In this document: one piece after another, positions 20,263-61,580 of the stretch
Position numbering within the stretch: position 1 is the stretch's first letter
Layout: each line of letters begins with the position of its first letter
Assembly (NCBI RefSeq): GCF_056746865.1
Contig: NZ_CM163382.1
Direction: 5' to 3' (one strand)
DNA length: 64,000 nucleotides
The notes under the pieces: generated by a model
What the model was told of the DNA's origin: nothing
The model's input: the letters and a program-made list of their open reading frames with translations, nothing else
Database searches by the model: none
Translations under genes and position numbers: made by a program

Positions 20263-20934
20263 ATGCAGTACCCGATTAACGAGATGTTCCAGACCCTGCA
20301 AGGTGAGGGTTACTTTACCGGCGTCCCCGCCATTTTTATTCGTTTACAGGGATGCCCGGTTGGCTGTGCCTGGTGCGACACCAAACACACCTGGGAAAAG
20401 CTTGAGGATCGGGAAGTCTCCCTTTTCAGCATTCTGGCGAAGACCAAAGAGAGTGATAAGTGGGGGGCGGCGAGCAGTGAAGACTTGCTGGCTGTCATTG
20501 GTCGCCAGGGATACACCGCGCGGCATGTGGTGATTACGGGTGGTGAGCCTTGCATTCATGATTTGCTGCCACTGACTGACCTGCTCGAAAAGAACGGTTT
20601 TAGCTGCCAGATCGAAACCAGTGGTACTCATGAGGTACGCTGCACACCGAATACCTGGGTTACCGTATCGCCAAAGCTGAACATGCGCGGCGGCTATGAA
20701 GTGTTGTCACAGGCACTGGAGCGAGCCAACGAAATCAAGCATCCAGTGGGACGCGTACGTGATATTGAAGCACTGGATGAACTTTTGGCGACGCTGACCG
20801 ATGATAAACCGCGAGTCATTGCACTGCAGCCGATTAGCCAAAAGGATGATGCCACACGATTGTGCATTGAAACCTGCATTGCTCGTAATTGGCGTTTGTC
20901 GATGCAAACACATAAATATCTAAATATTGCCTGA
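20263..20934 (+). CDS. queE: 7-carboxy-7-deazaguanine synthase QueE (radical SAM)
   Basis: 223-aa ORF; radical-SAM cysteine motif (CPVGCAWCDT). Confidence 0.9.
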   Translation: MQYPINEMFQTLQGEGYFTGVPAIFIRLQGCPVGCAWCDTKHTWEKLEDREVSLFSILAKTKESDKWGAASSEDLLAVIGRQGYTARHVVITGGEPCIHDLLPLTDLLEKNGFSCQIETSGTHEVRCTPNTWVTVSPKLNMRGGYEVLSQALERANEIKHPVGRVRDIEALDELLATLTDDKPRVIALQPISQKDDATRLCIETCIARNWRLSMQTHKYLNIA

Positions 20935-21099
20935 TTAAACATTTATAAGCGTTATAAATGGGTGGAACCTGTAAAGATTTCTACTCATTTATATTGTTTG
21001 TCGCCTCTGAAAACTCCTCCATTTTACCCATCCAGGGCTAATCATTAGCATTCTCTACAAATTCTGCGGCATTAATTTTTCGCTGGAGTGAAAATTATT

Positions 21100-21272
21100 G
21101 CGGTAAAGTTTGGTAGATTTTAGTCGGTATAGGATTACTTTAAATATTTAGCTTTTCAATCAATGGATTAAGTGCTCTTTAACATAATGGATGTGTTGTT
21201 TGTGTGATACTATAAAGTTGGTAGATTGTGACTGACTTAAAAAATCAATAATTAATAATAGGTTATGTTTAG
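21100..21272 (+). promoter_or_regulatory. AT-rich CRISPR leader upstream of first repeat
   Basis: strongly AT-rich tract directly abutting repeat 1; repeat orientation matches the transcribed E. coli I-E crRNA repeat. Confidence 0.5.
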
Positions 21273-21850
21273 TGAGTTCCCCGCGCCAGCGGGGATAAAC
21301 CGTCTGGGCCGGATTCGATCCCGCGCGTACCGGAGAGTTCCCCGCGCCAGCGGGGATAAACCGTACAATCCCGCATCGAAACTGAATACCCCGATGAGTT
21401 CCCCGCGCCAGCGGGGATAAACCGTTGCCCAGGCTTTTGCGAAAATTTGTGATTTGGAGTTCCCCGCGCCAGCGGGGATAAACCGACACGGGGCAGATTG
21501 AGCAGGACTGCGACCTCGAGTTCCCCGCGCCAGCGGGGATAAACCGGCAGCAGATTTACAAACAGATCGGAGATTACTGAGTTCCCCGCGCCAGCGGGGA
21601 TAAACCGCGCGGCCTGCGCTCGCGTAAAATCAGTTGCAGGAGTTCCCCGCGCCAGCGGGGATAAACCGTCCGCGCAAGCCTATATAAACCAGATTGATCA
21701 GAGTTCCCCGCGCCAGCGGGGATAAACCGCGAAATCGCACGCGCTTCCCGCATGGGGGAAAGAGTTCCCCGCGCCAGCGGGGATAAACCGTGTAAAAGTC
21801 TTGGTTTTGGCGCATCATTTGTGAGTTCCCCGCGCCAGCGGGGATAAACC
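21273..21850 (+). CRISPR. type I-E CRISPR array, 10 repeats of 29 bp (GAGTTCCCCGCGCCAGCGGGGATAAACCG), 9 spacers of 32 bp, terminal repeat degenerate (ends ...CCA)
   Basis: exact 61-bp periodicity; repeats start at 21273, 21334, 21395, 21456, 21517, 21578, 21639, 21700, 21761, 21822. Confidence 0.97.
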
Positions 21851-22283
21851 ACCATATAACCCGTTATCTCTTTCTCAAGTTTTTATATTAGCAGTACTCG
21901 TATTAAGCAATATATCCACGTAACACCTCATGTTCAAAATAGCTCTCCATATATGAGAAGTTCACAATTATCGATACAAAAAATCAAATTTAATTAAAGT
22001 GTTAGTTGTATGATACTTAAATCATTAAGAAATTATCATATATTATTTTTTTAATATTGAATTGATGTTTGTTAATTTTTTCTTTAGGATAGTAGTTTGT
22101 TTTTTAAGCTTATTATTCATTGATTAAGTAATAAATCTGGAAATTTGTCTTTGTTTTGAGGCTAATGAGTGGTTTTACATAATCGCCTCTATACGCTGTT
22201 GATGAATAGTTCTTATGAATAAAGATATCCAGTTCATACTTTAAGTGAAAATTGATAAAGTGCGATTCGTATTGTCTTTTATT

Positions 22284-22288
22284 CTAAA
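22284..22288. repeat. left 5-bp target-site duplication (CTAAA) of IS2
   Basis: CTAAA immediately flanks both IS2 ends. Confidence 0.8.
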
Positions 22289-22379
22289 TAGACTGGCCCC
22301 CTGAATCTCCAGACAACCAATATCACTTAAATAAGTGATAGTCTTAATACTAGTTTTTAGACTAGTCATTGGAGAGCAG

Positions 22380-22745
22380 ATGATTGATGTCTTAGGACCG
22401 GAGAAACGCAGACGGCGTACTACACAGGAAAAGATCGCTATTGTTCAGCAGAGTTTTGAACCGGGAATGACGGTCTCCCTTGTTGCCCGGCAACACGGTG
22501 TGGCAGCCAGCCAGTTATTTCTCTGGCGCAAGCAATACCAGGAGGGAAGTCTTACTGCTGTGGCCGCAGGAGAGCAGGTCGTTCCTGCCTCTGAACTTGC
22601 TGCTGCCATGAAGCAGATTAAAGAACTCCAGCGCCTGCTCGGCAAAAAAACGATGGAAAATGAACTCCTTAAAGAAGCCGTTGAATACGGGCGTGCAAAA
22701 AAGTGGATAGCGCACGCGCCCTTATTGCCCGGGGATGGGGAGTAA
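22380..22745 (+). CDS. insC: IS2 OrfA (InsC), helix-turn-helix transposase subunit
   Basis: ORF 22335..22745; preferred ATG at 22380 ([18 protein letters not shown]...), 121 aa. Confidence 0.85.
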
Positions 22746-23608
22746 GCTTAGTCAGCCGTTGTCTCCGGGTGTCGCGTGCGCAGTTGCACGTCATTCTCAG
22801 ACGAACCGATGACTGGAAAGATGGTCGCCGCAGCCGTCACTCAGATGATACGGATGTGCTTCTCCGTATACACCATGTTATCGGAGAGCTGCCCACGTAT
22901 GGTTATCGTCGGGTATGGGCGCTGCTTCGCAGACAGGCCGAACTTGATGGTATGCCTGCGATCAATGCCAAACGTGTTTACCGGATCATGCGCCAGAATG
23001 CGCTGTTGCTTGAGCGAAAAACCGCTGTACCGCCATCGAAACGGGCACATACTGGCAAAGTGGCCGTGAAAGAAAGCAATCAACGATGGTGCTCTGACGG
23101 GTTCGAGTTCCGCTGTGATAACGGAGAAAAACTGCGAGTCACGTTCGCGCTGGACTGCTGTGACCGTGAGGCACTGCACTGGGCAGTCACTACGGGCGGC
23201 TTCGACAGTGAAACAGTACAGGACGTAATGCTGGGAGCGGTGGAACGCCGCTTCGGCAACGAGCTTCCGGCGTCTCCAGTAGAGTGGCTGACGGATAATG
23301 GTTCATGCTACCGGGCTAATGAAACACGGCAGTTTGCCCGGATGTTGGGGCTTGAACCGAAGAACACGGCGGTGCGGAGTCCGGAGAGTAACGGCATAGC
23401 AGAGAGCTTCGTGAAAACGATAAAGCGTGACTACATCAGTATCATGCCTAAACCAGACGGGTTAACGGCAGCAAAGAACCTTGCAGAGGCGTTCGAGCAT
23501 TATAACGAATGGCATCCGCATAGTGCACTGGGTTATCGCTCGCCACGGGAATATCTACGGCAGCGGGCCAGTAATGGGTTAAGTGATAACAGGTGTCTGG
23601 AAATATAG
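22703..23608 (+). CDS. insD: IS2 OrfB (InsD), DDE transposase catalytic subunit, normally made as OrfAB by -1 frameshift
   Basis: 301-aa ORF overlapping orfA; rve/DDE-type sequence. Confidence 0.85.
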
Positions 23609-23619
23609 GGGCAAATCCA

Positions 23620-23624
23620 CTAAA
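23620..23624. repeat. right 5-bp target-site duplication (CTAAA) of IS2
   Basis: CTAAA read directly after the IS2 right end. Confidence 0.8.
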
Positions 23625-23641
23625 GACATCGAGTGTAGTTA

Positions 23642-23779
23642 ATATTCCTTGTAAAAACAGGGATAAACCGAACTAGTTAAAGTTTTTATTATGTTCCCTG
23701 CATCAGCGGGGATAAACCGGACTTGTTATCATTTTTTAAGTTGTCGAACTTATGTTCCCCGCGTCAGCGGGGATAACCA
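23642..23779 (+). CRISPR. degenerate CRISPR remnant: three decayed repeats (..cagggataaaccg; atgttccctgcatcagcggggataaaccg; atgttccccgcgtcagcggggataa-cca)
   Basis: partial matches to the 29-bp repeat at ~23642-23670, 23691-23719, 23752-23779; one 32-bp spacer between the last two. Confidence 0.6.
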
Positions 23780-23825
23780 TTCAGGTACGTTCATGCCGGG
23801 CAGTTTCCCGCCCGGCCTTCCTCAC

Positions 23826-25304
23826 TTACGCATTCGACCAGCTCTGGATCGAATCCGCATTCCCCAATTCCCCATGCATCACTTCATACGATTTTTTCAG
23901 GATTACATCAGTATGTTTGGTTAACTCCTTGAAAATGCCTTTATTCATCGCGTCGTAGCGTTTGGCATTGTTCTCAACAGGCATAAAGATATCTTTCACG
24001 CGAACCATTTTGTCGACAGCCGTTGCGTAATCCGGGTATAGCCCCAGACCTACCGCCGTATTGATCGCTGCCCCCAGACTTGCACAACCATTAATGGCGT
24101 TACGGCGTGCCGGAAGGTTGAACACGTCGGCAAAAATCTGCATAAACAGATCGCTGTTCGAACCGCCGCCAGTAATGATCACATGTTTGGCAAAGTGATT
24201 CATTTCATTACACATATTGTCGTAATTGTTCTTCAGCGTCAGCGCCACGCTTTCCAGTATCGAACGATATATCCATGCGTAATCCATGCTGGAATCAAAG
24301 CCGATCATAATCCCGCGTTTGTACGGTTCCCACGGATTGGTCAGCCAGTCCAGCACCGTCATCAGACCATTACAGCCAGGCGGCACACAAGACGCTTTCT
24401 TGTTGAGTAAATCTTCCGGTGAAAGATCCTGTGCTTTGGCATCCTGAATTAACGACTCGCCTAACATGTCGCGCAGCCAGCTCACTGTCCACATGCCTTT
24501 GCGGATACCGTAACCTTCATACAGCAATGTTTGCGGAATAGAAGACATAATTGGCCAGTACGCCACCGGATCTTTCGGCAGTGCTTTGCCGTTCATCATC
24601 AATGCGATGTAAGTGCCAAGAGAAATTACCGCAGTTTCATTATCCAGTAATCCGGCCCCCAGAGCTTCTACCGGTTTATCACTGGTGGTACAAACAACCG
24701 GCAGTCCTGCCGGGAAATGTGTCGCCAGTGCGGCTTGTGGTGTGATATGTCCGAGGACGGTGCCAGGCATTTGCACATCAAAAAGCATATGACGGGGGAT
24801 ATTAAACTTCTCCATGACTGCGGCATCTTCACTCCATGCCCAGGTCTTATAATCCACCGGCCACTGACCAAAATAGTTGGCGATATTGTCTTTAAACTCG
24901 CCGGTTAAGCGATGCGTCAGATAACCTGAAAAAGAGGTGACATATGCCACGTCAGGATTCGTATGTTCGTAAGGGCGTGTAACGCGTGCATCCTGCCAGC
25001 TAATCAACGGCGCAGCTGGCGTGCCATCGGCTTTCAATAACGCACGGCAGCAACGGATGGATCCCAGACCAATACCGACAATATCTTCTTTATTCCCGGC
25101 AAACTGACTCATCAAATCGTGACCGGCAAAACATAATGATGCCCATAAATCGTCGTCAGGATGTTCTGCGGTATCGGCATCTGGCGTGTGCATCGGCTGC
25201 AATAAGCCTTTGCCTTCGCAAACCACATTACCTTCCAGATCATACATCACCACTTTTGTGCTCTGACTTCCGCCATCAATCCCTATGATGTATTTTTTCG
25301 ACAT
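23826..25304 (-). CDS. ygcE: FGGY-family carbohydrate kinase YgcE
   Basis: 492-aa ORF; FGGY kinase N-terminus (KYIIGIDGGSQSTK). Confidence 0.85.
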   Translation of the reverse strand: MSKKYIIGIDGGSQSTKVVMYDLEGNVVCEGKGLLQPMHTPDADTAEHPDDDLWASLCFAGHDLMSQFAGNKEDIVGIGLGSIRCCRALLKADGTPAAPLISWQDARVTRPYEHTNPDVAYVTSFSGYLTHRLTGEFKDNIANYFGQWPVDYKTWAWSEDAAVMEKFNIPRHMLFDVQMPGTVLGHITPQAALATHFPAGLPVVCTTSDKPVEALGAGLLDNETAVISLGTYIALMMNGKALPKDPVAYWPIMSSIPQTLLYEGYGIRKGMWTVSWLRDMLGESLIQDAKAQDLSPEDLLNKKASCVPPGCNGLMTVLDWLTNPWEPYKRGIMIGFDSSMDYAWIYRSILESVALTLKNNYDNMCNEMNHFAKHVIITGGGSNSDLFMQIFADVFNLPARRNAINGCASLGAAINTAVGLGLYPDYATAVDKMVRVKDIFMPVENNAKRYDAMNKGIFKELTKHTDVILKKSYEVMHGELGNADSIQSWSNA

Positions 25305-41580: not shown

Positions 41581-44280
41581 ATGCGTAAATATCCTTTAAG
41601 TTTACTGAAGGATAAAAATATTGTGACTTTTTTTGATTTCTGGGGAAAAACCCGACGCGGCGAGAAAGACGGGGGCGACGACTATCACCTTCTTTGCTGG
41701 CATTCGCTGGATGTAGCCGCGATGGGCTATTTAATGGTTAAAAGCAATTGCTTCGGACTGGCTGACTATTTTCGTCAATTAGAGATTTCTGACAAGGAAC
41801 AGGCGGCTCAATTTTTCGCCTGGTTGTTGTGCTGGCACGATACTGGTAAATTTGCCCGCTCATTTCAGCAACTTTACCTGCACCCGAAACTCAGGGTTCC
41901 GGAAGGTGCTAGAAAAAATTACGAAAAAATCTCTCATTCAACGCTGGGCTACTGGTTGTGGCATCATTATTTAAGTGAATGTCAGGAGTTACTTCCTTCC
42001 TCTTCACTCTCTCCCCGCAAACTTACACGTGTAATAGCGATGTGGATGCCCATAACTACCGGGCATCATGGTCGCCCGCCTGACCGTATTGATGAACTGG
42101 ATAATTTTCTGCCTGAAGACAAAGCTGCCGCGCGAGATTTTCTTCTTGAAATCAAACCACTGTTTCCGCTCATAGAGATCCCCGCATTCTGGGATGATGA
42201 TGAGGGCATTGAACTTATAAAACACCTTTCCTGGTATATCTCTGCAACCGTCGTACTCGCAGACTGGACGGGATCGTCAGCGCGGTTTTTTCCACGCGTT
42301 GCACAGGCAATGGATATTAAAGATTACTGGCAGAAGGCTTTAGTTCAGGCTCAAAACGCCTTAACCGTCTTTCCTCCAAAAGCACAAACCGCGCCTTTCA
42401 CCGGAATTAATACGCTGTTTCCTTTTATTGAGAATCCGACACCGTTACAGCAAAAGGTGCTGGATCTGGATATCAGCCAGCCAGGGCCACAGTTATTTAT
42501 TCTGGAAGATGTGACTGGCGCAGGTAAAACGGAAGCGGCGCTTATCCTGGCGCACAGGTTGATGGCTGCGGGTAAAGCGCAGGGTTTGTTTTTTGGCCTG
42601 CCAACAATGGCAACGGCCAATGCCATGTACGATCGACTGGTCAAAACCTGGCTTGCTTTCTATTCGCCAGAGTCCCGCCCCAGCCTGGTGCTGGCACACA
42701 GTGCCCGAACATTAATGGACCGCTTTAATGAATCACTCTGGTCCGGTGATTTAGTCGGGTCAGAAGAACCGGATGAACAAACGTTCAGTCAGGGATGTGC
42801 GGCCTGGTTTGCCGACAGTAACAAGAAGGCGCTACTGGCTGAAATTGGCGTCGGCACGCTGGATCAGGCGATGATGGCTGTGATGCCGTTCAAACATAAT
42901 AATCTGCGGCTTCTGGGACTGAGTAACAAAATCCTGCTGGCTGATGAGATCCATGCCTGTGACGCTTACATGTCATGCATTCTTGAAGGGCTGATCGAGC
43001 GGCAGGCGCGTGGCGGAAACAGCGTCATTTTGCTTTCTGCCACGTTATCTCAACAGCAGTGCGACAAACTCGTTGCTGCCTTTGCGCGTGGTACAGAGGG
43101 CCAGCAAGAAGCTCCGTTCCTGGAAAAGGATGATTACCCCTGGCTGACGCACGTTACGAAATCCGATGTGCATTCACACCGGGTAGCGACGCGCAAAGAC
43201 GTTGAGCGTAGCGTGAGCGTGGGTTGGCTTCATAGCGAACAAGAATGTATTGCGCGTATCGAATCGGCAGTAAGTCAGGGGAAATGCATCGCCTGGATCC
43301 GGAATTCTGTCGATGACGCTATTAAGGTTTATCGTCAGTTGCTTGCCCGCGGCGTCATTCCTGCTTCCAGCCTTTCTCTGTTTCATAGCCGCTTTGCTTT
43401 TAGCGATCGCCAGCGAATTGAAACGGAAACGCTGGCACGCTTCGGTAAAGAAGATAGCTCACAGCGTGCCGGAAAAGTCCTCATTTGTACTCAGGTCTTA
43501 GAGTCGAGCGTTGATTGCGATATGGACGAAATGATTTCCGACCTGGCCCCTGTTGATTTGCTGATCCAGCGAGCGGGGCGATTACAGCGGCATATCCGCG
43601 ATATTAATGGTCAGTTAAAGCGTGACGGAAAAGACGAGCGTTCCCCTCCTGAATTGCTGATTCTGGCCCCCGTCTGGGACGACGCTCCAGGTGACGAATG
43701 GTTCGGCAGTGCCATGCGTAACAGTGCATATGTCTATCCCGATCATGGACGAATCTGGCTGACGCAGCGTGTACTGCGTGAGCAAGGCGCTATTCAAATG
43801 CCACACGCAGCCCGCCTTCTTATTGAATCAGTCTACGGTGAGGACGTGGTAATGCCGGAAGGATTTGCCCGCAGCGAGCAGGAGCAAGTGGGCAAATATT
43901 ACTGCGATCGCGCAATGGCTAAAAAGTTTGTGCTGAACTTCAGGCCTGGCTATGCCGCCAATATCAACGATTACCTTCCGGAAAAGCTGTCGACACGTCT
44001 GGCGGAGGAGTCTGTTTCCCTGTGGCTGGCTACCTGTATTGCCAGTGTGGTGAAGCCTTATGCCAACGGTGCTCACGCATGGGAAATGAGCGTTGTCAGA
44101 GTGCGTCGAAGCTGGTGGAAAAAACATCGGGATGAGTTTTCTTTACTGGAAGGGGAAGCGTTCAGGCAGTGGTGCATTGAACAGCGGAAAGATCCGGAGA
44201 TGGCAAACGTGATTTTAGTTACCGATGACGAAAGTTGCGGGTATTCGGCTATGGAAGGATTGACTGGCAAGGTTGGTTGA
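41581..44280 (+). CDS. cas3: CRISPR-associated nuclease/helicase Cas3 (type I-E)
   Basis: 899-aa ORF; N-terminal HD-type histidines (HSLDVA, WHDTGK, TGHHGRP); helicase Walker A (GAGKTEA) and DExH-like box (LADEIHACD); AT-rich upstream region. Confidence 0.9.
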   Translation: MRKYPLSLLKDKNIVTFFDFWGKTRRGEKDGGDDYHLLCWHSLDVAAMGYLMVKSNCFGLADYFRQLEISDKEQAAQFFAWLLCWHDTGKFARSFQQLYLHPKLRVPEGARKNYEKISHSTLGYWLWHHYLSECQELLPSSSLSPRKLTRVIAMWMPITTGHHGRPPDRIDELDNFLPEDKAAARDFLLEIKPLFPLIEIPAFWDDDEGIELIKHLSWYISATVVLADWTGSSARFFPRVAQAMDIKDYWQKALVQAQNALTVFPPKAQTAPFTGINTLFPFIENPTPLQQKVLDLDISQPGPQLFILEDVTGAGKTEAALILAHRLMAAGKAQGLFFGLPTMATANAMYDRLVKTWLAFYSPESRPSLVLAHSARTLMDRFNESLWSGDLVGSEEPDEQTFSQGCAAWFADSNKKALLAEIGVGTLDQAMMAVMPFKHNNLRLLGLSNKILLADEIHACDAYMSCILEGLIERQARGGNSVILLSATLSQQQCDKLVAAFARGTEGQQEAPFLEKDDYPWLTHVTKSDVHSHRVATRKDVERSVSVGWLHSEQECIARIESAVSQGKCIAWIRNSVDDAIKVYRQLLARGVIPASSLSLFHSRFAFSDRQRIETETLARFGKEDSSQRAGKVLICTQVLESSVDCDMDEMISDLAPVDLLIQRAGRLQRHIRDINGQLKRDGKDERSPPELLILAPVWDDAPGDEWFGSAMRNSAYVYPDHGRIWLTQRVLREQGAIQMPHAARLLIESVYGEDVVMPEGFARSEQEQVGKYYCDRAMAKKFVLNFRPGYAANINDYLPEKLSTRLAEESVSLWLATCIASVVKPYANGAHAWEMSVVRVRRSWWKKHRDEFSLLEGEAFRQWCIEQRKDPEMANVILVTDDESCGYSAMEGLTGKVG

Positions 44281-44377
44281 GATGCCTGCGACAGGGCTCT
44301 CTGAATAGTTGATACACCGAAAAGGATGGAATGATGGACAACCGACCTAGGATGGTCTTTTTTACGAGAGGATGCGT

Positions 44378-45940
44378 ATGAACTCGTTTTCACTTCTGAC
44401 AACCCCGTGGTTGCCCGTTCGTTATAAAGACGGAACGACAGGCAAACTGGCGCCTGTCGATCTGGCGGATGAAAATGTTGTCGATATTGCTGCGCCACGG
44501 GCAGATCTCCAGGGAGCGGCATGGCAGTTTTTGCTGGGGCTACTACAAACCAGCTTTGCGCCAAAAGATCATCGTCGTTGGGATGATATCTGGGAAGACG
44601 GACTGGAATCTGAAAAGCTACGGGAAGCATTGCTGTCCTTAGAACACGCTTTCCAGTTTGGGCCAGATTCCCCTTCATTTATGCAGGATTTCGAGGCGCT
44701 CACAGGAGATAAAGTTCAGGTCGCTTCGCTACTGCCTGAGATTCCCGGCGCTCAAACAACGAAGTTTAATAAAGACCACTTTATCAAGCGTGGTGTAACG
44801 GAATACCTGTGCCCACATTGTTCTGCGTTAGCTCTGTTCTCCCTACAGTTAAATGCGCCGTCAGGTGGTAAAGGCTACCGCACCGGTTTACGCGGCGGTG
44901 GGCCGATGACCACTCTGATTGAATTACAGGAATATCAGGGCAATCAACAAACGCCCTTGTGGCGCAAACTGTGGCTCAATGTGATGCCGCAGGACGAAGC
45001 CGACTTACCGCTACCCAAAAAATTTGACGATCTGGTTTTCCCCTGGCTTGGCCCGACGCGTACCAGCGAACTGGCCGGTGCGGTGGTAACCGATGATCAG
45101 GTTAATAAACTCCAGGCGTACTGGGGAATGCCGCGGCGTATTCGTATTGATTTTAATACCACGACAGTCGGCAACTGCGATATTTGCGGCGAGCAGAACG
45201 ACGCGCTCCTGAGCCTGATGACGACCAAAAATTACGGCGCGAATTATGCCATGTGGCAGCATCCCTTAACGCCTTACCGTGTACCCCTTAAAGAGGGCGG
45301 CGAGTTTTACTCGGTCAAACCACAACCAGGCGGTTTAATCTGGCGCGACTGGTTAGGCCTTATCGAAACGGGTAAATCAGAAAACAATACGGAACTTCCC
45401 GCGCTGGTGGTGAAACTCTTTAATGCCAGCAGTCTCAAGCAGGCAAAAGTGGGCCTGTGGGGATTTGGTTATGATTTTGACAACATGAAAGCGCGCTGTT
45501 GGTACGAACACCATTTTCCGCTGCTGCTCGATAAAAAAGAAGGCCAGATACCGAAGCTGCGGCTGGCTGCGCAAACGGCTTCACGGATTCTGAGTCTGTT
45601 ACGGAGTGCATTGAAAGAAGCGTGGTTCTCCGATCCAAAAGGTGCACGGGGTGATTTCAGTTTTGTGGATATCGACTTCTGGAACAAAACTCAGCATCGC
45701 TTCCTGAGGTTAGTGCGCCACATTGAAGAAGGTCAGGATGCGGATGAATTACTCAGCAAATGGCAAAAGGAAATTTGGTTATTCGCGCGTCAGGATTTTG
45801 ACGAGCGTGTCTTCACCAATCCATATGAGCCCGTTGATTTGAAACGCGTCATGACCGCGCGCAAGAAATATTTTACAACATCGGCGGAGAAGCAAAATGC
45901 TAAAGCCGCCAGGGAGAAAAAGCAGGAGGCTGCTGAATGA
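44378..45940 (+). CDS. cse1: Cascade large subunit Cse1 (CasA)
   Basis: ORF 44372..45940; ATG at 44378 has better Shine-Dalgarno spacing (GAGAGG); position after cas3 and size ~520 aa; sequence diverges from the K-12 CasA I recall. Confidence 0.8.
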   Translation: MNSFSLLTTPWLPVRYKDGTTGKLAPVDLADENVVDIAAPRADLQGAAWQFLLGLLQTSFAPKDHRRWDDIWEDGLESEKLREALLSLEHAFQFGPDSPSFMQDFEALTGDKVQVASLLPEIPGAQTTKFNKDHFIKRGVTEYLCPHCSALALFSLQLNAPSGGKGYRTGLRGGGPMTTLIELQEYQGNQQTPLWRKLWLNVMPQDEADLPLPKKFDDLVFPWLGPTRTSELAGAVVTDDQVNKLQAYWGMPRRIRIDFNTTTVGNCDICGEQNDALLSLMTTKNYGANYAMWQHPLTPYRVPLKEGGEFYSVKPQPGGLIWRDWLGLIETGKSENNTELPALVVKLFNASSLKQAKVGLWGFGYDFDNMKARCWYEHHFPLLLDKKEGQIPKLRLAAQTASRILSLLRSALKEAWFSDPKGARGDFSFVDIDFWNKTQHRFLRLVRHIEEGQDADELLSKWQKEIWLFARQDFDERVFTNPYEPVDLKRVMTARKKYFTTSAEKQNAKAAREKKQEAAE

Positions 45941-46473
45941 GTATTGTAAAAGAGGAGCACAAAGCCACGCTGCGTAAATGGCACGAAGAGTTGCAGGAAA
46001 AACGCGGCAATCGTGCCAGTCTGCGGCGTAGCACAACGGTTAATGATGTTTGTCTGTCAGAAGGGTTTCGTTCTCTGCTGATGCAGACCCACACTTTGTG
46101 GAAAATTGAAGCACAAGAGTGGCGTTTTACCGCACTGGCGCTGGTCGCCGCAGTTAGCGCCAATGTTAAAGCTATTGATGAACGGCAGCCTTTTGCCGCG
46201 CAGCTGGCGGCGGTAATGTCGGAGGGGCGTTTTACTCGCCTGTCGGCAGTAAAAACGCCTGATGATTTACTGCGTCAGTTACGTCGCGCGGTCAAATTAT
46301 TAAATGGTTCCGTCAATCTTATCTCTTTGGCAGAAGATATTTTCCGCTGGTGCCAGGAGAGCGACGACCTGCTCAATCATCACCGCCGCCAGCAGCGGCC
46401 AACAGAATTTATCCGTATCCGCTGGGCGCTGGAATATTACCAGGCTGGCGACGCCGATAACGAACAAAATTAA
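45937..46473 (+). CDS. cse2: Cascade small subunit Cse2 (CasB)
   Basis: 178-aa ORF, start overlaps cse1 stop (ATGA), AGGAGG Shine-Dalgarno; operon position. Confidence 0.8.
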   Translation: MSIVKEEHKATLRKWHEELQEKRGNRASLRRSTTVNDVCLSEGFRSLLMQTHTLWKIEAQEWRFTALALVAAVSANVKAIDERQPFAAQLAAVMSEGRFTRLSAVKTPDDLLRQLRRAVKLLNGSVNLISLAEDIFRWCQESDDLLNHHRRQQRPTEFIRIRWALEYYQAGDADNEQN

Positions 46474-46487
46474 TAAAGGACTATCTC

Positions 46488-47543
46488 ATGACGACATTTA
46501 TTCAGCTTCATTTGTTAACCGCTTACCCTGCTGCCAACCTTAACCGTGATGACACCGGTGCGCCAAAAACTGTGGTACTGGGTGGAGCAACGCGTCTGCG
46601 CGTTTCCTCACAAAGTCTGAAACGTGCGTGGCGCACTTCTGCACTTTTTGAACAGGCACTGGCGGGCCATATTGGTATTCGCAGTGGGCGTATTGCGCGT
46701 GAGGCGGCAACTATCCTGATTGAGAAAGGCATCGAAGAGAAAAAAGCCATCGAATGGGCGGCAAAAATTGCGGATTATCTTGGGAAAGCTAAAAACGACA
46801 AAAAACCAAAAGATCCGCTCACTAACGCCGAAACTGAACAGCTAGTCCATATCAGCCCGGCAGAATTTGACGCCGTAAAAGCGCTGGCCCATCAACTGGC
46901 CGAAGAAAAGCGCGCGCCAAAAGAGGAAGATCTCGCTTTGTTACGTAAAGATCGCATGGCGGTAGATATCGCTATGTTTGGTCGTATGCTGGCGAATAAA
47001 CCCGAATTTAATGTTGAAGCCGCCTGCCAGGTCGCGCATGCATTTGGTGTCAGTGAAACGATTGTCGAAGATGATTTTTTCACCGCCGTTGATGATTTGC
47101 GCCAGGCTTCTGAAGATGCCGGTGCCGGGCATCTTGGTGAAACCGGATTCGGTTCTGCGCTGTTCTACACCTATATCTGCATCGATAAAGATCTGCTGGT
47201 CGAAAACCTCGGCGGTGACGAAGCGTTAGCTAATCAGACCTTGCGCGCCTTTACGGAAGCCGCACTTAAAGTCTCCCCAACCGGCAAACAGAACAGCTTT
47301 GCCAGCCGTGCCTACGCCTCCTGGGCGCTGGCAGAAAAAGGCACTGAACAACCACGCTCTCTGGCGGCGGCTTTCTATGAACCCATTAATGGCACCCGGC
47401 AGTTAGATGTGGCGGTGCAGCGTATTACAACGCTTCGCGAAAATATGAATACGGTCTATGAACAGAAGACCGAATGCGCAAGCTTTGACGTGATGAACAA
47501 ACAGGGAAGCATGAAGGACGTGCTGGACTTTATCTGCGCGTAA
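46488..47543 (+). CDS. cas7e: Cascade backbone Cas7e (CasC/Cse4)
   Basis: 351-aa ORF; N-terminus ...LNRDDTGAPK...GGATRLRVSSQSLKRAWR parallels K-12 CasC (...LNRDDLGKPK...GGVERGRVSSQCWKRAIR). Confidence 0.9.
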   Translation: MTTFIQLHLLTAYPAANLNRDDTGAPKTVVLGGATRLRVSSQSLKRAWRTSALFEQALAGHIGIRSGRIAREAATILIEKGIEEKKAIEWAAKIADYLGKAKNDKKPKDPLTNAETEQLVHISPAEFDAVKALAHQLAEEKRAPKEEDLALLRKDRMAVDIAMFGRMLANKPEFNVEAACQVAHAFGVSETIVEDDFFTAVDDLRQASEDAGAGHLGETGFGSALFYTYICIDKDLLVENLGGDEALANQTLRAFTEAALKVSPTGKQNSFASRAYASWALAEKGTEQPRSLAAAFYEPINGTRQLDVAVQRITTLRENMNTVYEQKTECASFDVMNKQGSMKDVLDFICA

Positions 47544-47553: not shown

Positions 47554-47630
47554 ATGAGCCAATATTTGATTTTTCAGCTTCATGGGCCAATGGCATCCTG
47601 GGGCGTCGATGCCCCGGCGAAGGGAACAAT
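47554..47630 (+). pseudogene. cas5e: cas5e (casD) 5' fragment: only about 24 N-terminal codons retained; breakpoint approximate
   Basis: MSQYLIFQLHGPMASWGVDAPAKG parallels the Cas5e N-terminus (MRSYLILRLAGPMQAWG...); the frame then runs into unrelated low-complexity sequence and stops at 107 aa; no cas6e/cas1/cas2 follow. Confidence 0.7.
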
Positions 47631-48113
47631 ACAACATCACACAAGGCCAGTAATAGCGCGAATCCTGCGAGTTCTAAAATCAATTCTATACACATTTCTA
47701 TACACATTTATCCCTCGCTTGAGGGTTATGCGTCATCGTTATCGGCTATCTCGCTGGTGGATGATCACGGATGGCCTGATATCTACAGCCGCCTTAAAAA
47801 GCTGTACCCGACAAGCATTACTGCGTATCGGGTTCGTTCGCTCTTTCTACTCGTGGCAGATGAGTTTATCGGTGTGATTTTATCGGGCGAGGGTATTGTA
47901 TCAGGCATCCCCTTTTCTATGCAGATTTGCATAGTTCCGAATGGTGGCGTTATGGAAGCCTCCCATATCAGCATCATGCCCACCAGCGTGAAGTATTTTT
48001 TTATTTCGCGGGTGTAAAAATTTGACGAGGCGGGCGGTCCCATAAGCAATGGATTGTAGGGATTTCGCTCCCCCCCTCCTGAATGCAATTTTTCGTATAT
48101 ATATACAAAACAG

Positions 48114-48270
48114 TGCGGGTTATGCGGGTTACCGGGTTATCTTAGTATGCTAACTATTTTTTGTTCTTTAGTATCAATATGTTGCAAAATACACTGTTCA
48201 TTATTCAAGCATCACATAACCCGCAAAACATCCCAAATAACCCGCAAACGCCCCAAAATAACCCGCAAAC
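48114..48270. repeat. iteron cluster A: GCGGGTTA(T/C) direct copies (48114-48140) and three inverted copies phased at 21 bp (48216, 48237, 48258), next to an AT-rich TATATATATA tract
   Basis: read directly: cagtgcgggttatgcgggttaccgggttat ... cataacccgcaaaacatcccaaataacccgcaaacgccccaaaataacccgcaaac. Confidence 0.65.
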
Positions 48271-48878
48271 ACATTGCTGAAAGCAGGGGTTGATAGTTCC
48301 ACTGGTGCCACAGAACGGCTGAATACGGTAACTGTTGCTGGTGGTCTGTCCTGTTGTCGTTCCAGTCTCATCAAATTGAGAGGCAAGACAAAGTGCATTT
48401 TTGCACTATAGCCAAAGCCTCATAAAACAGAGTTACCCCCACAGGCTGGCAAACCATTACCCAACGCAATTAAGTGCGTCAGAATCGATTACAGCGCGTT
48501 CCTGTGGCACGTTGTTGCCGTTCTCAGCAGTGAAAGGAGAGAGTGAAAAGCGCATATCTATTACTGTTGAGGGGTGTAGCGGCATATATCGCGAATATCC
48601 ACGCCCTTAATCCCGATACCGTCACGGCGCATTGAGATCCACCAGAAGATTAAGATAGTTTTTACCTGAAATTATCCAAATAATTGTTTTAACTGATTAA
48701 TTTTTCGAATATCTATTGTTAGGGAATAAATCATCAGATACACCATAAAACGACATCTTTCAGGGTGTAGAAGATGCAAAGCCGGTACTGAAGAAAAGAC
48801 AAAGAATATGAATGGCTGGCCACACGATGGAAGGATTGTCCATTGAAGGATAAATCCCCGTGGTACAAGTTTTGGTAA

Positions 48879-48899
48879 GCCCGCAGCGCGGGCTTTTTT
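48879..48899 (+). terminator. rho-independent terminator on + strand (gcccgc-agc-gcgggc + TTTTTT)
   Basis: read directly; no convincing ORF upstream of it. Confidence 0.65.
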
Positions 48900-48971
48900 G
48901 TGGACGAAACAAAAGTCAGTGCTACATTCATTGACGCCACATCGAGGTGGCTTATAGATGGAAATTTCACA

Positions 48972-49133
48972 ATGAAAAAAGCATTTGCTGCACTGTTCGT
49001 TTTGTTGTCTCTGGTAGCTTCAACTCAGGCCTTTGCCGGTCGTTGTCAGCACGACAGCGATACTGCCGCTGACGGCTCCCGCTGCGGTGGGCGTTCTGCG
49101 GATTCCCGCCCGGGCGGCGGTGGCATTCGTTAA
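48972..49133 (+). CDS. small secreted peptide (53 aa precursor): signal peptide then ~30-aa Cys-containing, Gly-rich mature region
   Basis: ATG at 48972 inside ORF 48900..49133; MKKAFAALFVLLSLVASTQAFA | GRCQHDSDTAADGSRCGGRSADSRPGGGGIR; followed by a hairpin terminator. Confidence 0.45.
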   Translation: MKKAFAALFVLLSLVASTQAFAGRCQHDSDTAADGSRCGGRSADSRPGGGGIR

Positions 49134-49136
49134 AAA

Positions 49137-49156
49137 CAAGGCCGCGAAAGCGGCCT
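49137..49156. terminator. bidirectional hairpin terminator (aggccgc-gaaa-gcggcct) between convergent small-peptide gene and cargo operon
   Basis: perfect 7-bp stem; T-tracts on both strands. Confidence 0.7.
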
Positions 49157-49162
49157 GTTTGA

Positions 49163-50014
49163 TCACTGTGCAGTTTTCGCTGATCGATTTTCAGCTCTAA
49201 ATTCAAGAACCGTTTCAATATTTCTTTCCTTCAGCATATCAATAACATTTTTATTCATTTGACTATCACTGGTTAATAACTGGTAAACGTTGCTTCTCTC
49301 TTTATCAGAATTTTCTTTAACAGCTGCTTTGCATGCCAAATGCTTATTGAAATTTTCTACATCGCTAGTACAGGAATTTACGGCTGCTGATGAAATATCA
49401 GACGCTGAAGAAACACCATCATCCAAACGTTTTATAGCATTTTCTATACATGAGTTAAGGGAATAAACGACAACTGAGCGATACCCTTCAGACGCACACC
49501 ATTCTAAATTTCTTGAAGGATCGAGTGGTTTTACTTCGCTGGATTGAATTAACTTGTCAAAAACTGACTTATATTCAATCTGTTTTTTATCTATAGCCCA
49601 TACTTCAGTAGCTGATTTATAATTCCCCGTATGCCTATTAACATCAAATCCATGTTTTATAAGCAAATCTGCCCATGAAAGATTTATTGATTCATTGTTA
49701 TGAGGCCATTTTCCTGTCAGAACCGCCCCCATAGACCCCATATATCCGCCATATGATGGTATAGCACCATGGCTCAGTAACTTCTCAGCAACCACAGGGC
49801 AATTAATTACATAAGAGGCGTAAAGCCCATTCCATAAAGCCCCTCTATAGTAATCGCCACGATTAGGTTCTTTTAAGTCGATAGCCTTTGATAATTGTTC
49901 ACACGTTTTGCATGCATCAAAGTTATCCTTATTGCATTGCAATGAACTGGCGGCTGTAGGATTTACAGAGACTATTGAAAGCACTATGCCAAAAAACAAA
50001 TTTATTTTTTTCAT
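49163..50014 (-). CDS. secreted Cys-rich protein of unknown function (283 aa), last gene of cargo operon
   Basis: N-terminal signal peptide (MKKINLFFGIVLSIVSVNPTAA); 8 Cys; strongly AT-rich codon usage; ATG one base after upstream stop (TAGGATG). Confidence 0.7.
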   Translation of the reverse strand: MKKINLFFGIVLSIVSVNPTAASSLQCNKDNFDACKTCEQLSKAIDLKEPNRGDYYRGALWNGLYASYVINCPVVAEKLLSHGAIPSYGGYMGSMGAVLTGKWPHNNESINLSWADLLIKHGFDVNRHTGNYKSATEVWAIDKKQIEYKSVFDKLIQSSEVKPLDPSRNLEWCASEGYRSVVVYSLNSCIENAIKRLDDGVSSASDISSAAVNSCTSDVENFNKHLACKAAVKENSDKERSNVYQLLTSDSQMNKNVIDMLKERNIETVLEFRAENRSAKTAQ

Positions 50015-50015
50015 C

Positions 50016-53000
50016 CTATTTCATCTGCTCTTCAACTTTATTTAGTAATGGTGATATCGCCCACAGATTCTGAAAAGGTAGCATTTTACGGACAGCGTGG
50101 GTTTGCTGGCTGTCAAATTCTCCGTTAAGTACACCATTTGCAACCGTCGCGGCATCACCGCCAAGATCAAAGGTAGGACCAAGTAAAGCACCAATAGCAT
50201 TACGACTCTGAAACCTTGATACCGGAGGCGCACCAAACATCGCGCCAAGACCAAACCTACCGCCGCTTATGTTCTCAACGGTATTCAGCGGCTCAGAGAG
50301 CCAGCCAAGCATTCCGCCCCGGTCGATCCCCTCTTTCACAAGGTTATTCCAGCTGTAGTCGATATCGCGACCGCTTAACTTCTGTTTCATCATATAGACC
50401 ATTGAGCCAAGCGCAATCGTGCCAAGCGCACCAAGATAGAATGAAGCATCGCCCTGCTGGATACCAGATACCAACACCCTGTTATGCTGTGCGAAGATAA
50501 ACGTTTTGAACTGCGTGATCATCTTCCAGCCTTCTTTACTAAAAAACAGCGGTGTATCACCTACGCCAGGCGTTACAATCACTGAGTCTACATCTTTCAG
50601 CACTGCAGACTGGAAAATCTCTCTAGCGAAACGGTCATCCCACAGATGACTATGCCCGGTTAACAGCCCGTCCATATCCTCTCCGTGCTTCCCGAATTGC
50701 TCCCCGATTCGGCGCAGAACATCTTCATTGATGCCGACCTGTGCCATCTTCCGCATTTCACTTTTGGCGAGCGTGCCACCAGCAGAAACCTGGCGAGCCG
50801 CGTCAAGTATCCTCGACTGCACTATCATCCCGGACCATGATTTAAGTGCGCTGTTCCACTGATTCATCAGCGTCCAGTTACCGAATTTCTGCGTCATCCA
50901 GTTCAGGCCTCGCTCAGCGGCGCTTCTCCGGCTATAGGGGTCAGTAAGATCCGCTATAGCCTTTGTACGCGTAGACAGGACATAATCAAGCCCAACGGCC
51001 ATTTCTCGCAAATCCCTGGTTGCAATTTTCACTGAGTCCATATTTTTAAGCATGCTTACCATTGGTCCGAGAGATTTTCTCAGGCCATGCTGCATCATCG
51101 GTCGCATCAGATCAGTTGCAGCGGAGACGGTCATTCCACCAAGCAAACGGAGGAAGTTAATATTCCTAGCAACTCGCCCGGCACGAACAAAGAAACTGCG
51201 TGGATCTTGAGGTGCGCCGTAAGTACCAAGCAGTCGGTCACGCATAGCCGTAATATCCCTAATATCAGCCTCCCGTTGCTTCTCAAGAGCTGCACGTCGT
51301 TTAGGTGTTTTAGCCTCTTTTATTAGCCGGGTATATTCCTCACTAACCTGACGGATTTGCTCCCCCATATCTTTACGGCCAAACTGCGCAGTCAGCTCAA
51401 TTTCTGGTGCCACCTGCCGGAGATAACTTTCCATGATGTAGTTAACATCTGATTCAAGAAAATCTTCTATACGCTCATCAGGAATAAGCAGCGTTCGGCT
51501 TTTAGTGAAACCAGCCCGACCAACGAGTCTCTCTGGGATAATATCGGCTGGTACAAGCCCGGAAGGTGCGCCTATTATTTTATTCACGATCTCGTCAGCA
51601 GCGTCCTCTGCTTCCTCTCGGGATAGAGGCTCCATCTGCTTCAGTGCTCGCTCGCGGCTTGCATTCAGCCTTGTGGTTGAATTTGCCCGTTTTTGCAGTC
51701 GGCGAAGCTCAGAACGATATTTCCGTGGATTATCCAGCAACTCCATATGGCGCTGATAGACAGGAAGCTCACTCTTTGCCTGCGCTATATCATCAAGGCG
51801 TGTTTTAAGGTCAGAGCTTTCTTTCATCATTCTTGCCTGAAGTTTTTCTGATGAAGTCTCGGCCAACTCTTTTTCTATTCTTGTAAGACGCGCCTGTGTG
51901 TCAGTCTCCTGAGATATAAGCTTATTTCGTTTATCCAGTTCTTCCATGAGTAGAATTTTTTTACCAGACCATTTCTCCGCTTCAGCGATTTCACTAGCGA
52001 GAGCATCAGCGCGCGGTGCCGATTCCTCTGCAGTTTTTAGCAATGAATTTATCCTTTCAATTCGCTGACCTGCTTTGTCAGCACCTTTGGCACTAATCCC
52101 TTGTATCCAGTTGGCAATTCGCCCTCTGAATTCAGTGCGGTCGGAAAGTATCTTATCGAACTTATAAATGCGGGGAAGATAACTTTTCGCCGTCACGACA
52201 TCGATATCCTCAGGAAGGATCCCCAGTTCCTGCATACGGGCTTTTGTGGTCTCGAAAATGGGGCGGATTCTGGCGGCTGCTTGTGAAACCTCAGGAATAT
52301 CACTCTGATCACCACGGCGCATAGCCATGCCAACAGCTTCATTGAAATCAATAAAGCTCATCCTCTTCACGCCGCGGGCGCTGACAGATTTGCTGTACTG
52401 CTGGTAAGCATCACGAGTGGCTTCCATCTGCTTATAAAGCATGGCGTCGTATTGCTTAATCTTAGTCTCGACTGCCGTAAACGTAGCCAACCCCTCATCA
52501 TTTTTGGCGAAGAAATAGTTATTTTCGGCAAGCTGCTGGTTAATCTGACGGGAGACAAGAGATGGTGATTGCGCCAAGCGGCCAGCAGGAGTGACACTCA
52601 ACGTTTTGTTAGCAAGTCCAAGTCCAGCGAGCTGTTCCTGATCGAGTGTGGTATTGAAAACCTGAGCTGCACCAATGCTTTGAGGAGAATCCATACCTCG
52701 CAAATGATTACCTACTGAGTTAACCACTGCCTCGCGCGCGCTAGGTCCAGCAAGTAGCTGTGCACCAGCACCAAGGATCCCACCAACGAGAGCATCAACA
52801 ACAACGTTCGATACGCTCTCCATCGGTGAGCGAGCTTCCTGAGTGGCCTGCAATGCGGCCTCTGAAGCAACACTGCCAGCAGCATTGGCTAAAGCAAAAC
52901 GTCCGGCTGTTTCTGCAATACGACCGCCACGAACGACAGCGCCGAACGGAATAAACATAGAAATCGCATTGAATGGATCTGCTAATCTCATTGCTACAGA

Positions 53001-56152: not shown

Positions 56153-56248
56153 CAGTAACCTCCTATTTTGAATCGGGAGTCAGAATTCATAAAACCTGAG
56201 TTAGATAACATTGGCGTCCCTCTGCTTTGATGCTGTACCAGCGATTCA

Positions 56249-56455
56249 TTACTCACCCCCCGATGCAAAACCATTCTGATTAAGCCAGGCGTTTACGGCA
56301 TGTCTGACAATCTGCGCCACGCCTGGTAATGGCTGATCAGGGTGATTGTTCACATGGTCGATTCTGTACTGCTTAAGGCGCATCACGGTCTGTGCATCCA
56401 GATGAACGGAACCACCTCTGACATCGCCTGTGTTCAGGTCGTTAATACAATTCAC
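56249..56455 (-). CDS. small protein of unknown function (68 aa), first gene of cargo operon, GTG start
   Basis: GTG start preceded by AAGAGGAAA Shine-Dalgarno at optimal spacing; AT-rich putative promoter region upstream (56456-56554). Confidence 0.55.
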   Translation of the reverse strand: MNCINDLNTGDVRGGSVHLDAQTVMRLKQYRIDHVNNHPDQPLPGVAQIVRHAVNAWLNQNGFASGGE

Positions 56456-56554
56456 AGCAATTTCCTCTTACTGACTAAACTATGCACATTATTGATCTGA
56501 AAAAGTGGTAGATAAACATATTTCTATCACAAAAACAGATTAATTGATTTCAGC

Positions 56555-57994: not shown

Positions 57995-58016
57995 ATGCCA
58001 AATTATACTTTGGCCT

Positions 58017-61578: not shown

Positions 61579-61580
61579 GT

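Follow-up and report, generated by a model that had tools for sequence, protein, structure and literature searches.

Position of the locus and structure of the array

The 64,000-nt stretch of DNA analysed here (the window) carries a CRISPR array, a copy of IS2 and three degenerate repeats at some distance from an interrupted set of cas genes. Two questions are raised by this arrangement: whether the array still serves immunity or is a record of past encounters, and whether the insertion sequence cut the degenerate repeats off from it. The locus is, with high confidence, the type I-E CRISPR-II locus of E. coli, ~20 kb from cas, in which the array is most likely an inactive and frozen record, a strain-specific IS2 occupies the gap and at least two classes of invader are recorded. 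The features on which its placement depends are as follows.

20263..20934, plus strand: queE (ygcF), 223-aa ORF, leader-side flank
20935..21273, plus strand: leader2.3 region, from the queE stop codon to the first repeat
21274..21851, plus strand: CRISPR2.3 array, 10 repeats of 29 nt and 9 spacers of 32 nt
23826..25304, minus strand: ygcE (FGGY-family sugar kinase), 492-aa ORF, trailer-side flank

The queE product was identified with NCBIfam TIGR04322 (QueE; score 368 bits, cutoff 200) and that of ygcE by matches to FGGY-kinase families. In the annotation of relatives, queE and ygcE are found at the same flanks and the array is entered as 'CRISPR'. A description of the E. coli CRISPR-II locus was reportedly given by Diez-Villasenor et al. 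in 2010. The locus, also described by Almendros et al. in 2014, consists of CRISPR2.2 and CRISPR2.3, lying 0.5 kb apart in the ygcE-ygcF interval, the leader facing ygcF (PMC3903273), and CRISPR2.2 was found to hold three repeats and two invariable spacers in 100 strains (PMC4489801). The array of the window occupies this position, between ygcE and queE with its leader toward ygcF. The type of locus, its leader, CRISPR2.2 and sporadic IS insertions are already known, both the conservation of leader2.3 and the sporadic IS elements at CRISPR-II having been published (PMC3903273, PMC4489801, PMC3737337). Composed of ordinary, published parts, the locus is of little importance beyond bookkeeping.

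The original prediction, made from the sequence alone, was of a cas-distal array of 10 repeats and 9 spacers with an AT-rich leader beside queE, and this description holds. A search with the pattern GTTCCCCGCGCCAGCGGGGATAAACC found 10 perfect copies (0 mismatches) spaced by exactly 61 nt (21276...21850) and, with 3 mismatches allowed, two further copies at 23693 and at 23754, against 0 matches in shuffled sequence. The full repeat is 29 nt long (GAGTTCCCCGCGCCAGCGGGGATAAACCG, at 21274+61i) and its terminal copy (21823-21851) closes in ...CCA. It is of the 'A' variant (GAGTT...), reads from left to right and matches exactly the type I-E sequence GWGTTCCCCGCGCCAGCGGGGATAAACCG expected of a Cas6e substrate. 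It is predicted to form a 7-bp stem capped by a tetraloop (minimum free energy of -15.1 kcal/mol, z = -3.6). Regular repeats of ~29 nt with nine distinct 32-nt spacers identify the array as type I-E, and the pattern search found no other type I-E repeats in the rest of the window. Rfam returned only sok and two chance matches for the whole window at the gathering threshold, without a CRISPR repeat family, as did an E-value scan of 20900-24000; this blank is read as a limitation of the library or the threshold.

The core of the leader (21074-21273) has a GC content of 28%. Between queE and the first repeat, 327 of 339 positions (96.5%) are identical to the K-12 CRISPR2.3 leader, with 57/60 in the 60 bp adjoining the first repeat, and the blocks AATCAAT, CTCTTTAA and AGTTGGTAGATTGT are shared when the region is aligned with leader2.3 of K-12 and with a leader of CRISPR2.1. 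A predicted IHF site (AATCAATGGATTA, 21158-21170) matches the IHF consensus WATCAANNNNTTR, and a stretch resembling a promoter (21232-21259) was recognised solely by its match to the consensus. The region is thus AT-rich, homologous to a known leader and in direct contact with the first repeat. Judged by their sequence, the array's own signals (leader and all repeats) are intact.

CRISPR-II of K-12 has the same site between ygcE and ygcF/queE, the same 29-nt type-2 repeat and 32-nt spacers, a near-identical leader, and the same ~0.5-kb gap and three-repeat CRISPR2.2 with two invariable spacers, CRISPR2.2 being 100% identical. The locus described here differs in its nine spacers, of which 0 are in common with the six of K-12, in its 'A' repeat variant as opposed to the 'T' variant (GTGTT) of K-12, and in the strain-specific IS2 inside the gap.

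Conservation of the array among related genomes

Some 100 RefSeq genomes already contain, with annotation, exactly this array of nine spacers. Comparison of its spacer content with related strains, which the original prediction had proposed as a check, located the same nine spacers within the same 520-bp span in ~105 of 5,426 genomes, while the remaining variants seen in relatives are deletions or subsets. At least 80% of the spacer set is held by 114 of the 165 spacer-matching genomes, and all nine spacers lie in the 520-bp span in 38 of 60 evenly spaced rows of these genomes. After removal of IS2, the whole 2,665-bp locus is 100% identical in at least 30 listed RefSeq genomes, whose hosts, among the matches listed, are humans, chickens and a kite. 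One array-sharing genome is labelled 'O15:H18 strain ST69'.

The array can serve as a stable lineage marker. In two strains with the same array, 118UI and SW071620, cas1e is a pseudogene with an internal stop. The proposal that the array is probably a non-functional historical record gains comparative support from this pseudogene and from the invariance of the nine-spacer set.

Interruption of the cas operon in cas5e

The cas genes and the element that follows them are arranged as below.

40108-41226: IS421, upstream of the cas operon
41581..47543, plus strand: intact part of the type I-E cas operon
41581-44280, plus strand: cas3, with Cas3 core and HD domains
44372-45940, plus strand: casA/cse1, above the NCBIfam cutoff
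45937-46473, plus strand: casB/cse2, above the NCBIfam cutoff
46488-47543, plus strand: cas7e, above the NCBIfam cutoff
47554..47622, plus strand: 5' stump of cas5e, ~23 codons, ending in GGCGAAG (47616-47622)
47623..64000, no strand assigned: integrative island with a primase-like gene, an Icd-like gene, phage-like cargo and an extra TnpB insertion, running off the window

By analogy with the family, the array would be transcribed from left to right from a promoter in the leader, and Cas6e would cut the transcript at the base of each repeat hairpin, giving 61-nt crRNAs. Cascade (CasA, CasB, Cas7, Cas5e and Cas6e) with a crRNA would then engage protospacers with an AAG-type PAM, the target being degraded by Cas3, and new spacers would be inserted at the leader-repeat junction by Cas1-Cas2 together with IHF. 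Cas5e is a required subunit of Cascade, and the I-E system of E. coli K-12 is silenced by H-NS.

Within the window, only cas3, casA, casB and cas7 of this set are intact, and cas6e, cas1, cas2 and CRISPR2.1 are absent from its 64,000 nt. The intact part, which has hok/sok upstream (sok identified by Rfam), is 99.98% identical to that of strain SW071620. As cas5e is cut after ~23 codons, Cascade cannot assemble from this locus. The original prediction of a truncated cas operon is therefore borne out inside the window, where cas5e ends at 47622, while the distal genes may persist beyond the island or at another place in the genome.

The sequence is homologous to intact cas5e as far as 47622 and to the CS5L island from 47616 onward, and a three-way alignment showed the 7-bp GGCGAAG to be the overlap of cas5e and the island att core. 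This heptamer lies within the 19-bp core TTGGAGCGGGCGAAGGGAA, which flanks the island in CS5L and equals the 3' end of tRNA-Gly; the junction fits a tRNA-associated island at a secondary site. Immediately to its left, relatives read CCCCC and the window CCCC. The 107-aa chimeric ORF that spans the junction matches no family. The island shares 5 blocks at 98% identity with the glyU-associated one of CS5L, and the window stops ~3 kb short of where that copy has its integrase. Its cargo was also considered as a defence system, which was rejected: there was no PADLOC match, and PHROG gave phage internal-virion and endolysin-like families, with Pfam matches as well.

The island would have interrupted cas5e and left the array behind as an inactive record. 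Inactivity of the array is considered most likely because cas5e is cut, the window lacks cas6e, cas1 and cas2, the cas1e of close relatives with the identical array is a pseudogene and the lineage shows no change in its spacer set.

The break might instead stem from a large rearrangement, either a ~100-kb integrase-mediated inversion (cas5e pseudo-att with the distal att of the glyU island) or a deletion, leaving the array as a true orphan in place. CS5L has the same island at glyU, which we take to be ~100 kb from the cas locus on the K-12 map; the strand relationship at the junction can be reasoned to fit such an inversion, and the missing C beside it is a small irregularity. Nonetheless, entry of an excised island circle into a secondary site happens more often than rearrangement, and a simple deletion cannot give the observed strand switch, making this origin possible though unlikely. 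Were the island simply inserted, its integrase end should be followed by TTGGAGCG-GGCGAAG-TGCGTCATACC, the rest of cas5e.

Simple insertion also admits a partly functional array, in which cas6e, cas1 and cas2 would persist downstream and be expressed, for instance from internal promoters or by transcription reading out of the island, so that pre-crRNA would be processed and the array possibly extended, with Cascade-dependent interference lost. The location of the junction exactly in the att core is the signature of an integrase-mediated insertion with the DNA on both sides conserved, and the leader and every repeat are undamaged. On such an insertion, cas6e-cas1-cas2-CRISPR2.1 may survive a few kb past the window, and Cas6e might process the pre-crRNA. 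This is judged improbable, given the remaining ~23 codons for a required Cascade subunit, a cas1e that was already a pseudogene in relatives, an array that is invariant in the lineage and distal cas genes that are not seen in the window.

Still less credence is given to the idea that a glyU-type island used the 7-bp pseudo-att in cas5e to disable Cascade and orphan the array, as a case of a mobile element disarming type I-E immunity of its host and not of random decay. The cas5e-island junction is unique among 5,426 genomes and hence offers no evidence for a recurrent or selected strategy. Prophage integration has reportedly been seen in CRISPR loci of Streptococcus pyogenes; the cases are alike in that an element with a tyrosine-integrase-type att core interrupts an immune locus, and differ in the target, here a 7-bp pseudo-att inside cas5e. 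E. coli BL21, a cas-less strain with an orphan CRISPR2.3, is similar in that leader and array are kept and the Cas machinery is missing or broken. In contrast to BL21, cas3, casA, casB and cas7 are intact here and, instead of a loss of the whole operon, the damage consists of an island junction inside cas5e. The break at the att-core junction is a neat example of damage to CRISPR-Cas by a mobile element.

Origin of the spacers

The original prediction had also suggested that the spacers could reveal past invaders or self-targets, among them the mobile element of the window. The spacers, separated by N, served as queries (E <= 10) against the phages of INPHARED, the plasmids of PLSDB and 5,426 E. 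coli genomes, and two of them gave matches outside arrays.

21303..21334, plus strand: spacer S1, leader-proximal and newest, TCTGGGCCGGATTCGATCCCGCGCGTACCGGA
21486..21517, plus strand: spacer S4, ACACGGGGCAGATTGAGCAGGACTGCGACCTC, in-frame translation TGQIEQDCDL

S1 is matched at 32/32 positions, with AAG immediately upstream, in the terminase large-subunit gene that a P2-like prophage carries in E. coli N1420 (L010 12002-12033). A mobile-element origin with an AAG-type PAM is thereby provided by S1, and this newest spacer marks an encounter with a P2-like phage at a canonical AAG PAM. S4 matches 24-29 of 32 positions in genes for DnaB-like replicative helicases of temperate phages, phage-plasmids and lambdoid E. 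coli prophages. Leaving aside the last codon, its mismatches fall mainly at third codon positions; the homologues have GCG or GAG upstream, not AAG, and one seed mismatch. From these matches, at least two classes of past invader appear to be recorded, namely a P2-like phage (S1) and a lambdoid phage or phage-plasmid (S4).

The other seven spacers had no non-array match in INPHARED, PLSDB or the 5,426 E. coli genomes (E <= 10). Where PLSDB gave matches to these spacers, the entries were chromosomes of E. coli listed there as plasmids. Eight exact scans of IMG/VR (S1-S3 and S5-S9, with N at every sixth position) returned zero matches, the S1 control included, and are of low power. The expectation of past invaders was thus borne out by S1 and S4, and that of self-targets was not within the window, where the nine spacers and the two remnant spacers matched nothing longer than 13-14 nt beyond themselves (blastn-short). 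No spacer target was present in the IS2, IS421, TnpB element or island sequence of the window.

IS2 and the CRISPR2.2 remnant

Downstream of the array, the window contains the following features.

21852..22288, no strand assigned: inter-array region, AT-rich (26% GC), its final 5 bp being the IS2 target CTAAA
22289..23619, plus strand: IS2 (IS3 family), 1331 bp, intact, with CTAAA copies at 22284-22288 and 23620-23624
22380-22745, plus strand: tnpA/insC of IS2, 121 aa (NCBIfam NF006928, IS2 TnpA, 1-121/121, 276 bits against a cutoff of 229)
22703-23608, plus strand: tnpB/insD of IS2, 301 aa (NCBIfam NF006918, IS2 TnpB, 1-301/301, 708 bits against a cutoff of 597)
23642..23780, plus strand: CRISPR2.2 remnant, with degenerate repeats at 23642-23670, 23691-23719 and 23752-23780 and 'spacers' of 20 nt and 32 nt

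The inter-array region is 92.2% identical to K-12 over 437 bp, a length that agrees with the ~440 bp originally estimated between array and IS2. With IS2 and a single copy of CTAAA taken out, CRISPR2.3 and CRISPR2.2 are 459 bp apart, the gap in K-12 being ~0.45 kb. Similarity of the region to the leader is weak and non-significant (best 32 nt at 78%, E = 0.018), and its interpretation as a decayed leader of CRISPR2.2 was rejected as unsupported.

IS2 had been predicted to be intact and flanked by a CTAAA duplication, and it proved to be so, with both copies of the duplication and full-length TnpA and TnpB. Its left end (TAGACTGG...) starts at 22289 and its right end (...GGGGCAAATCCA) lies at 23619, with terminal inverted repeats of 33 nt that are 79% complementary. 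In its size of ~1.3 kb, inverted repeats, 5-bp duplication and full-length, overlapping tnpA and tnpB it is a member of IS2, sharing with the known IS2 of E. coli the 1331 bp, the imperfect inverted repeats, the overlapping frames of 121 and 301 aa and the 5-bp duplication; nothing about it is notable except the new insertion site. Relatives have the empty site with a single CTAAA, their 2,665-bp match corresponding to 4,001 - 1,331 - 5, and IS2 was found at this site in 0 of 5,426 complete genomes. The insertion is strain-specific, and together with the cas5e-island junction it provides unique strain markers. IS2 entered the AT-rich gap by transposition at a point 17 bp upstream of CRISPR2.2, duplicating CTAAA; array and leader are both untouched by it.

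The three decayed repeats, located next to ygcE as predicted, have start spacings of 49 and 61 nt and end 45 bp short of the ygcE stop codon. With three repeats, two invariable spacers and a distance of ~0.5 kb from CRISPR2.3, they constitute CRISPR2.2, which is fixed throughout the species, and the remnant is identical at 161/161 positions to K-12 W3110 and 118UI. That IS2, from its place between array and remnant, split one continuous array and left the decayed repeats as its severed tail has practically no chance of being correct and is refuted by the empty site in relatives: IS2-less K-12 and 118UI have the same ~0.45-kb AT-rich gap and a base-identical remnant, CRISPR2.2 consists of 3 repeats together with two unvarying spacers across 100 strains (PMC4489801), and the clean 5-bp duplication and exact empty site mean that no sequence was lost to IS2. 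The remnant is thus not separated from the array by IS2, as had originally been claimed, the gap and the remnant being ancestral and present in K-12.

Folding indicated that the 7-bp hairpin is retained by all three CRISPR2.2 repeats, the most decayed of which keeps it by way of two double changes. Compensatory change was considered and set aside as not significant, GC-to-AT decay alone giving the same outcome with a probability of ~0.2. The perfect identity of CRISPR2.2 to K-12 stands against flanks that are 92-96% identical, and as a weaker possibility this invariant mini-array may have a selected, non-immune role. If it does, the IS2 lying 17 bp upstream would be a natural perturbation of it.

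Locus identity and array structure

From its flanking genes, repeat, leader and layout, this locus is the published E. coli CRISPR-II, which lies between ygcE and ygcF, with CRISPR2.2 and CRISPR2.3 0.5 kb apart, a leader beside CRISPR2.3 that every strain has in similar form, and a 'sporadic presence of insertion elements' (Almendros et al., PMC3903273). Within 21100-23779 only known kinds of element are present, namely the CRISPR-II locus and an IS2, and about a hundred public genomes already have the nine-spacer array in their annotation.

Features of the CRISPR-II region
20263-20934, queE, upstream flank of the leader
21074-21273, AT-rich leader stretch directly after queE, 28% GC
21274-21851, CRISPR2.3 array
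22284-22288 and 23620-23624, CTAAA target duplication
22289-23619, IS2, 1331 bp, with imperfect terminal inverted repeats
23642-23670, 23691-23719 and 23752-23780, degenerate repeats of CRISPR2.2, ending 45 bp before the ygcE stop codon
23826-25304, ygcE, convergent gene on the trailer side

The ten repeats, nine spacers and queE-side leader of the original prediction were all confirmed, as were the intact IS2 and the three decayed repeats beyond it. Ten perfect copies of a 26-nt core of the E. coli type I-E repeat follow one another with an exact 61-nt period (21276-21850), and two further copies (23693 and 23754) carry three mismatches each; shuffled sequence gave no copies, and no other I-E repeats were found anywhere in the 64-kb window. 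In full the repeat is 29 nt long (GAGTTCCCCGCGCCAGCGGGGATAAACCG; copy ten terminates ...CCA), and it folds into the expected 7-bp stem and tetraloop (-15.1 kcal/mol, z = -3.6); the spacers are each 32 nt, no two alike. Within the leader, AATCAATGGATTA (21158-21170) fits the IHF consensus WATCAANNNNTTR, and the leader has sequence blocks in common with a CRISPR2.1 leader. The repeats are of the 'A' variant (GAGTT), whereas K-12 has the 'T' variant (GTGTT) (PMC3737337).

Comparison with K-12 W3110 showed 327/339 identical positions from the queE stop to the first repeat (57/60 in the 60 bp adjoining it) and 92.2% identity in the AT-rich gap 3' of the array. Identity is 161/161 over 23620-23780, a stretch that starts at the IS2 target and ends with the third degenerate repeat: CRISPR2.2 and its short flank are unchanged over 161 bp, while the flanks diverge by 4-8%. 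This invariance is numerically striking and known from the literature, where CRISPR2.2 is described as three repeats with two spacers that do not vary across 100 strains (Garcia-Gutierrez et al., PMC4489801); comparing a single pair of sequences proves little when the genome is a mosaic. All three CRISPR2.2 repeats keep a 7-bp hairpin, the most decayed one via two double substitutions (estimated probability by chance about 0.2).

IS2 insertion

The IS2 encodes full-length TnpA (121 aa) and TnpB (301 aa), both over the NCBIfam IS2 cutoffs, and begins 437 bp past the array, ending 17 bp before CRISPR2.2. A 4-kb query around the locus was searched against 5,426 complete RefSeq E. coli genomes. 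None covered at least 80% of it, and many matched at 100.0% identity in two pieces totalling 2,665 bp, that is, 4,001 less the IS2 (1,331) and one duplication copy (5). The unoccupied target, ...TTCTAAAGACATC..., is present in K-12 and in strain 118UI. Together, the two-piece match and the empty target make the IS2 a strain-specific simple insertion into a pre-existing gap. It does sit between array and remnant, as predicted; that it split a single array is ruled out by that gap and the empty target elsewhere, and no sequence was lost.

Spacer targets

Searched against the rest of the window, the nine spacers (S1-S9, S1 leader-proximal) and the two of CRISPR2.2 gave nothing beyond 13-14 nt, so the suggested self-targets are absent from the IS2, the IS421, the TnpB element and the island. 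Past invaders, also suggested, were found for two spacers.

For S1, the newest spacer, a 32/32 match lies in the gene for the terminase large subunit of a P2-like E. coli N1420 prophage (10771-12534 of the retrieved N1420 region), in the context ...GGGGAAG-TCTGGGCC.... The AAG immediately upstream is the canonical I-E PAM. The exact protospacer was found only in this prophage, whose sequence is in neither INPHARED nor IMG/VR; for E. coli spacers, prophages of complete bacterial genomes were more informative than dedicated viral collections.

S4 reads in frame as TGQIEQDCDL and matched DnaB-like replicative helicase genes at 24-29/32 in temperate phages of Enterobacter, Klebsiella, Citrobacter and Vibrio, in phage-plasmids and in lambdoid E. 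coli prophages such as that of EC21Z-063 (which has bet, gam, ninG and Q). Mismatches fall mostly at third codon positions, the last codon aside, the pattern expected when a gene is a homologue. In the database copies the upstream triplet is GCG or GAG and position 5 of the seed is mismatched, which points to a relative as yet unsequenced as the true source. For S2, S3 and S5-S9, no match came from INPHARED, PLSDB or the E. coli genomes (E <= 10), nor from IMG/VR, where the null is weak because the scans missed S1 too.

Conservation of the spacer set

Among the genomes listed, at least 30 carry the whole locus at 100% identity, from humans, chickens, a black kite and wastewater on several continents. 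A spacers-only search matched 165 genomes, 114 of them with 80% or more of the set, and all nine spacers lay in the same 520-bp span in 38 of 60 evenly spaced rows. The other array-type matches are subsets, consistent with deletions or with common older spacers (S3-S9 or S7-S9 only, for example), and no extra spacers were seen between leader and S1 in relatives. Both 118UI and SW071620 have the identical array, and in both the annotation gives cas1e as a pseudogene interrupted by an internal stop (17830-18753 and 3598-4521 of the two retrieved regions), which would explain the absence of new acquisitions. These comparative data, all indirect, support the predicted reading of the array as a probably non-functional, frozen record.

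The cas operon and island junction

Features from hok/sok to the island
39743-39900, sok of hok/sok (Rfam, 111.7 bits), downstream of cysJIH
40108-41226, IS421 (IS4 family), after hok/sok and immediately upstream of cas3
41581-47543, cas3, casA, casB and cas7e, intact
49163-56152, - strand, three large island genes (283, 1129 and 915 aa)
56786-57994, - strand, IS200/IS605-type TnpB, 402 aa
59153-61279, primase-like gene of the island

IS421 may affect cas3 expression; it is found in some relatives (SW071620, PKF4, PKF11, AST262) and absent from 118UI, marking a sub-lineage.

Just one feature is mildly unusual, and it falls outside the CRISPR-II stretch: the break of cas5e at an att core. The gene starts at 47554, and homology to the intact SW071620 operon stops at 47622, after about 23 codons; from 47616 on, the window is 98% identical to an island in strain CS5L. 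That island adjoins tRNA-Gly, and the 19-bp direct repeat TTGGAGCGGGCGAAGGGAA at both its ends (5994-6012 and 24524-24542 of the CS5L region) is the tRNA 3' end. The junction reads cas5e...GATGCCCC-GGCGAAG-GGAACAATAC...island, the shared GGCGAAG being 47616-47622, which places the crossover within 7 bp of identity inside the island's att core. Such a junction suggests integrase-mediated recombination at a secondary site, a pseudo-att in a cas gene. Complete RefSeq E. coli genomes gave no example of it. Left of the junction the window has CCCC and relatives CCCCC.

Insertion of the island into cas5e would produce this junction, and so, in keeping with the strand relationships, would an inversion of about 100 kb involving an island resident at glyU. 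Under either, cas5e, which encodes an essential Cascade subunit, is destroyed. The predicted truncation of the cas operon therefore stands for the window only: the window ends about 3 kb short of the island's integrase end, and the cas5e remainder, cas6e, cas1, cas2 and CRISPR2.1 may survive outside it.

Other island cargo

The three large genes are almost without Pfam matches and have no PADLOC match; their PHROG labels are 'internal virion protein with endolysin domain', 'endolysin' and 'head protein'. By these annotations the cargo looks phage-ejection-protein-like and the rest of the island satellite-like. The TnpB has HTH_OrfB_IS605, OrfB_IS605 and Cas12f1-like TNB domains, and lies in a 1.75-kb segment that the CS5L island, 98% identical elsewhere, lacks; the CS5L copy has Icd-like and AntA/BRO genes.
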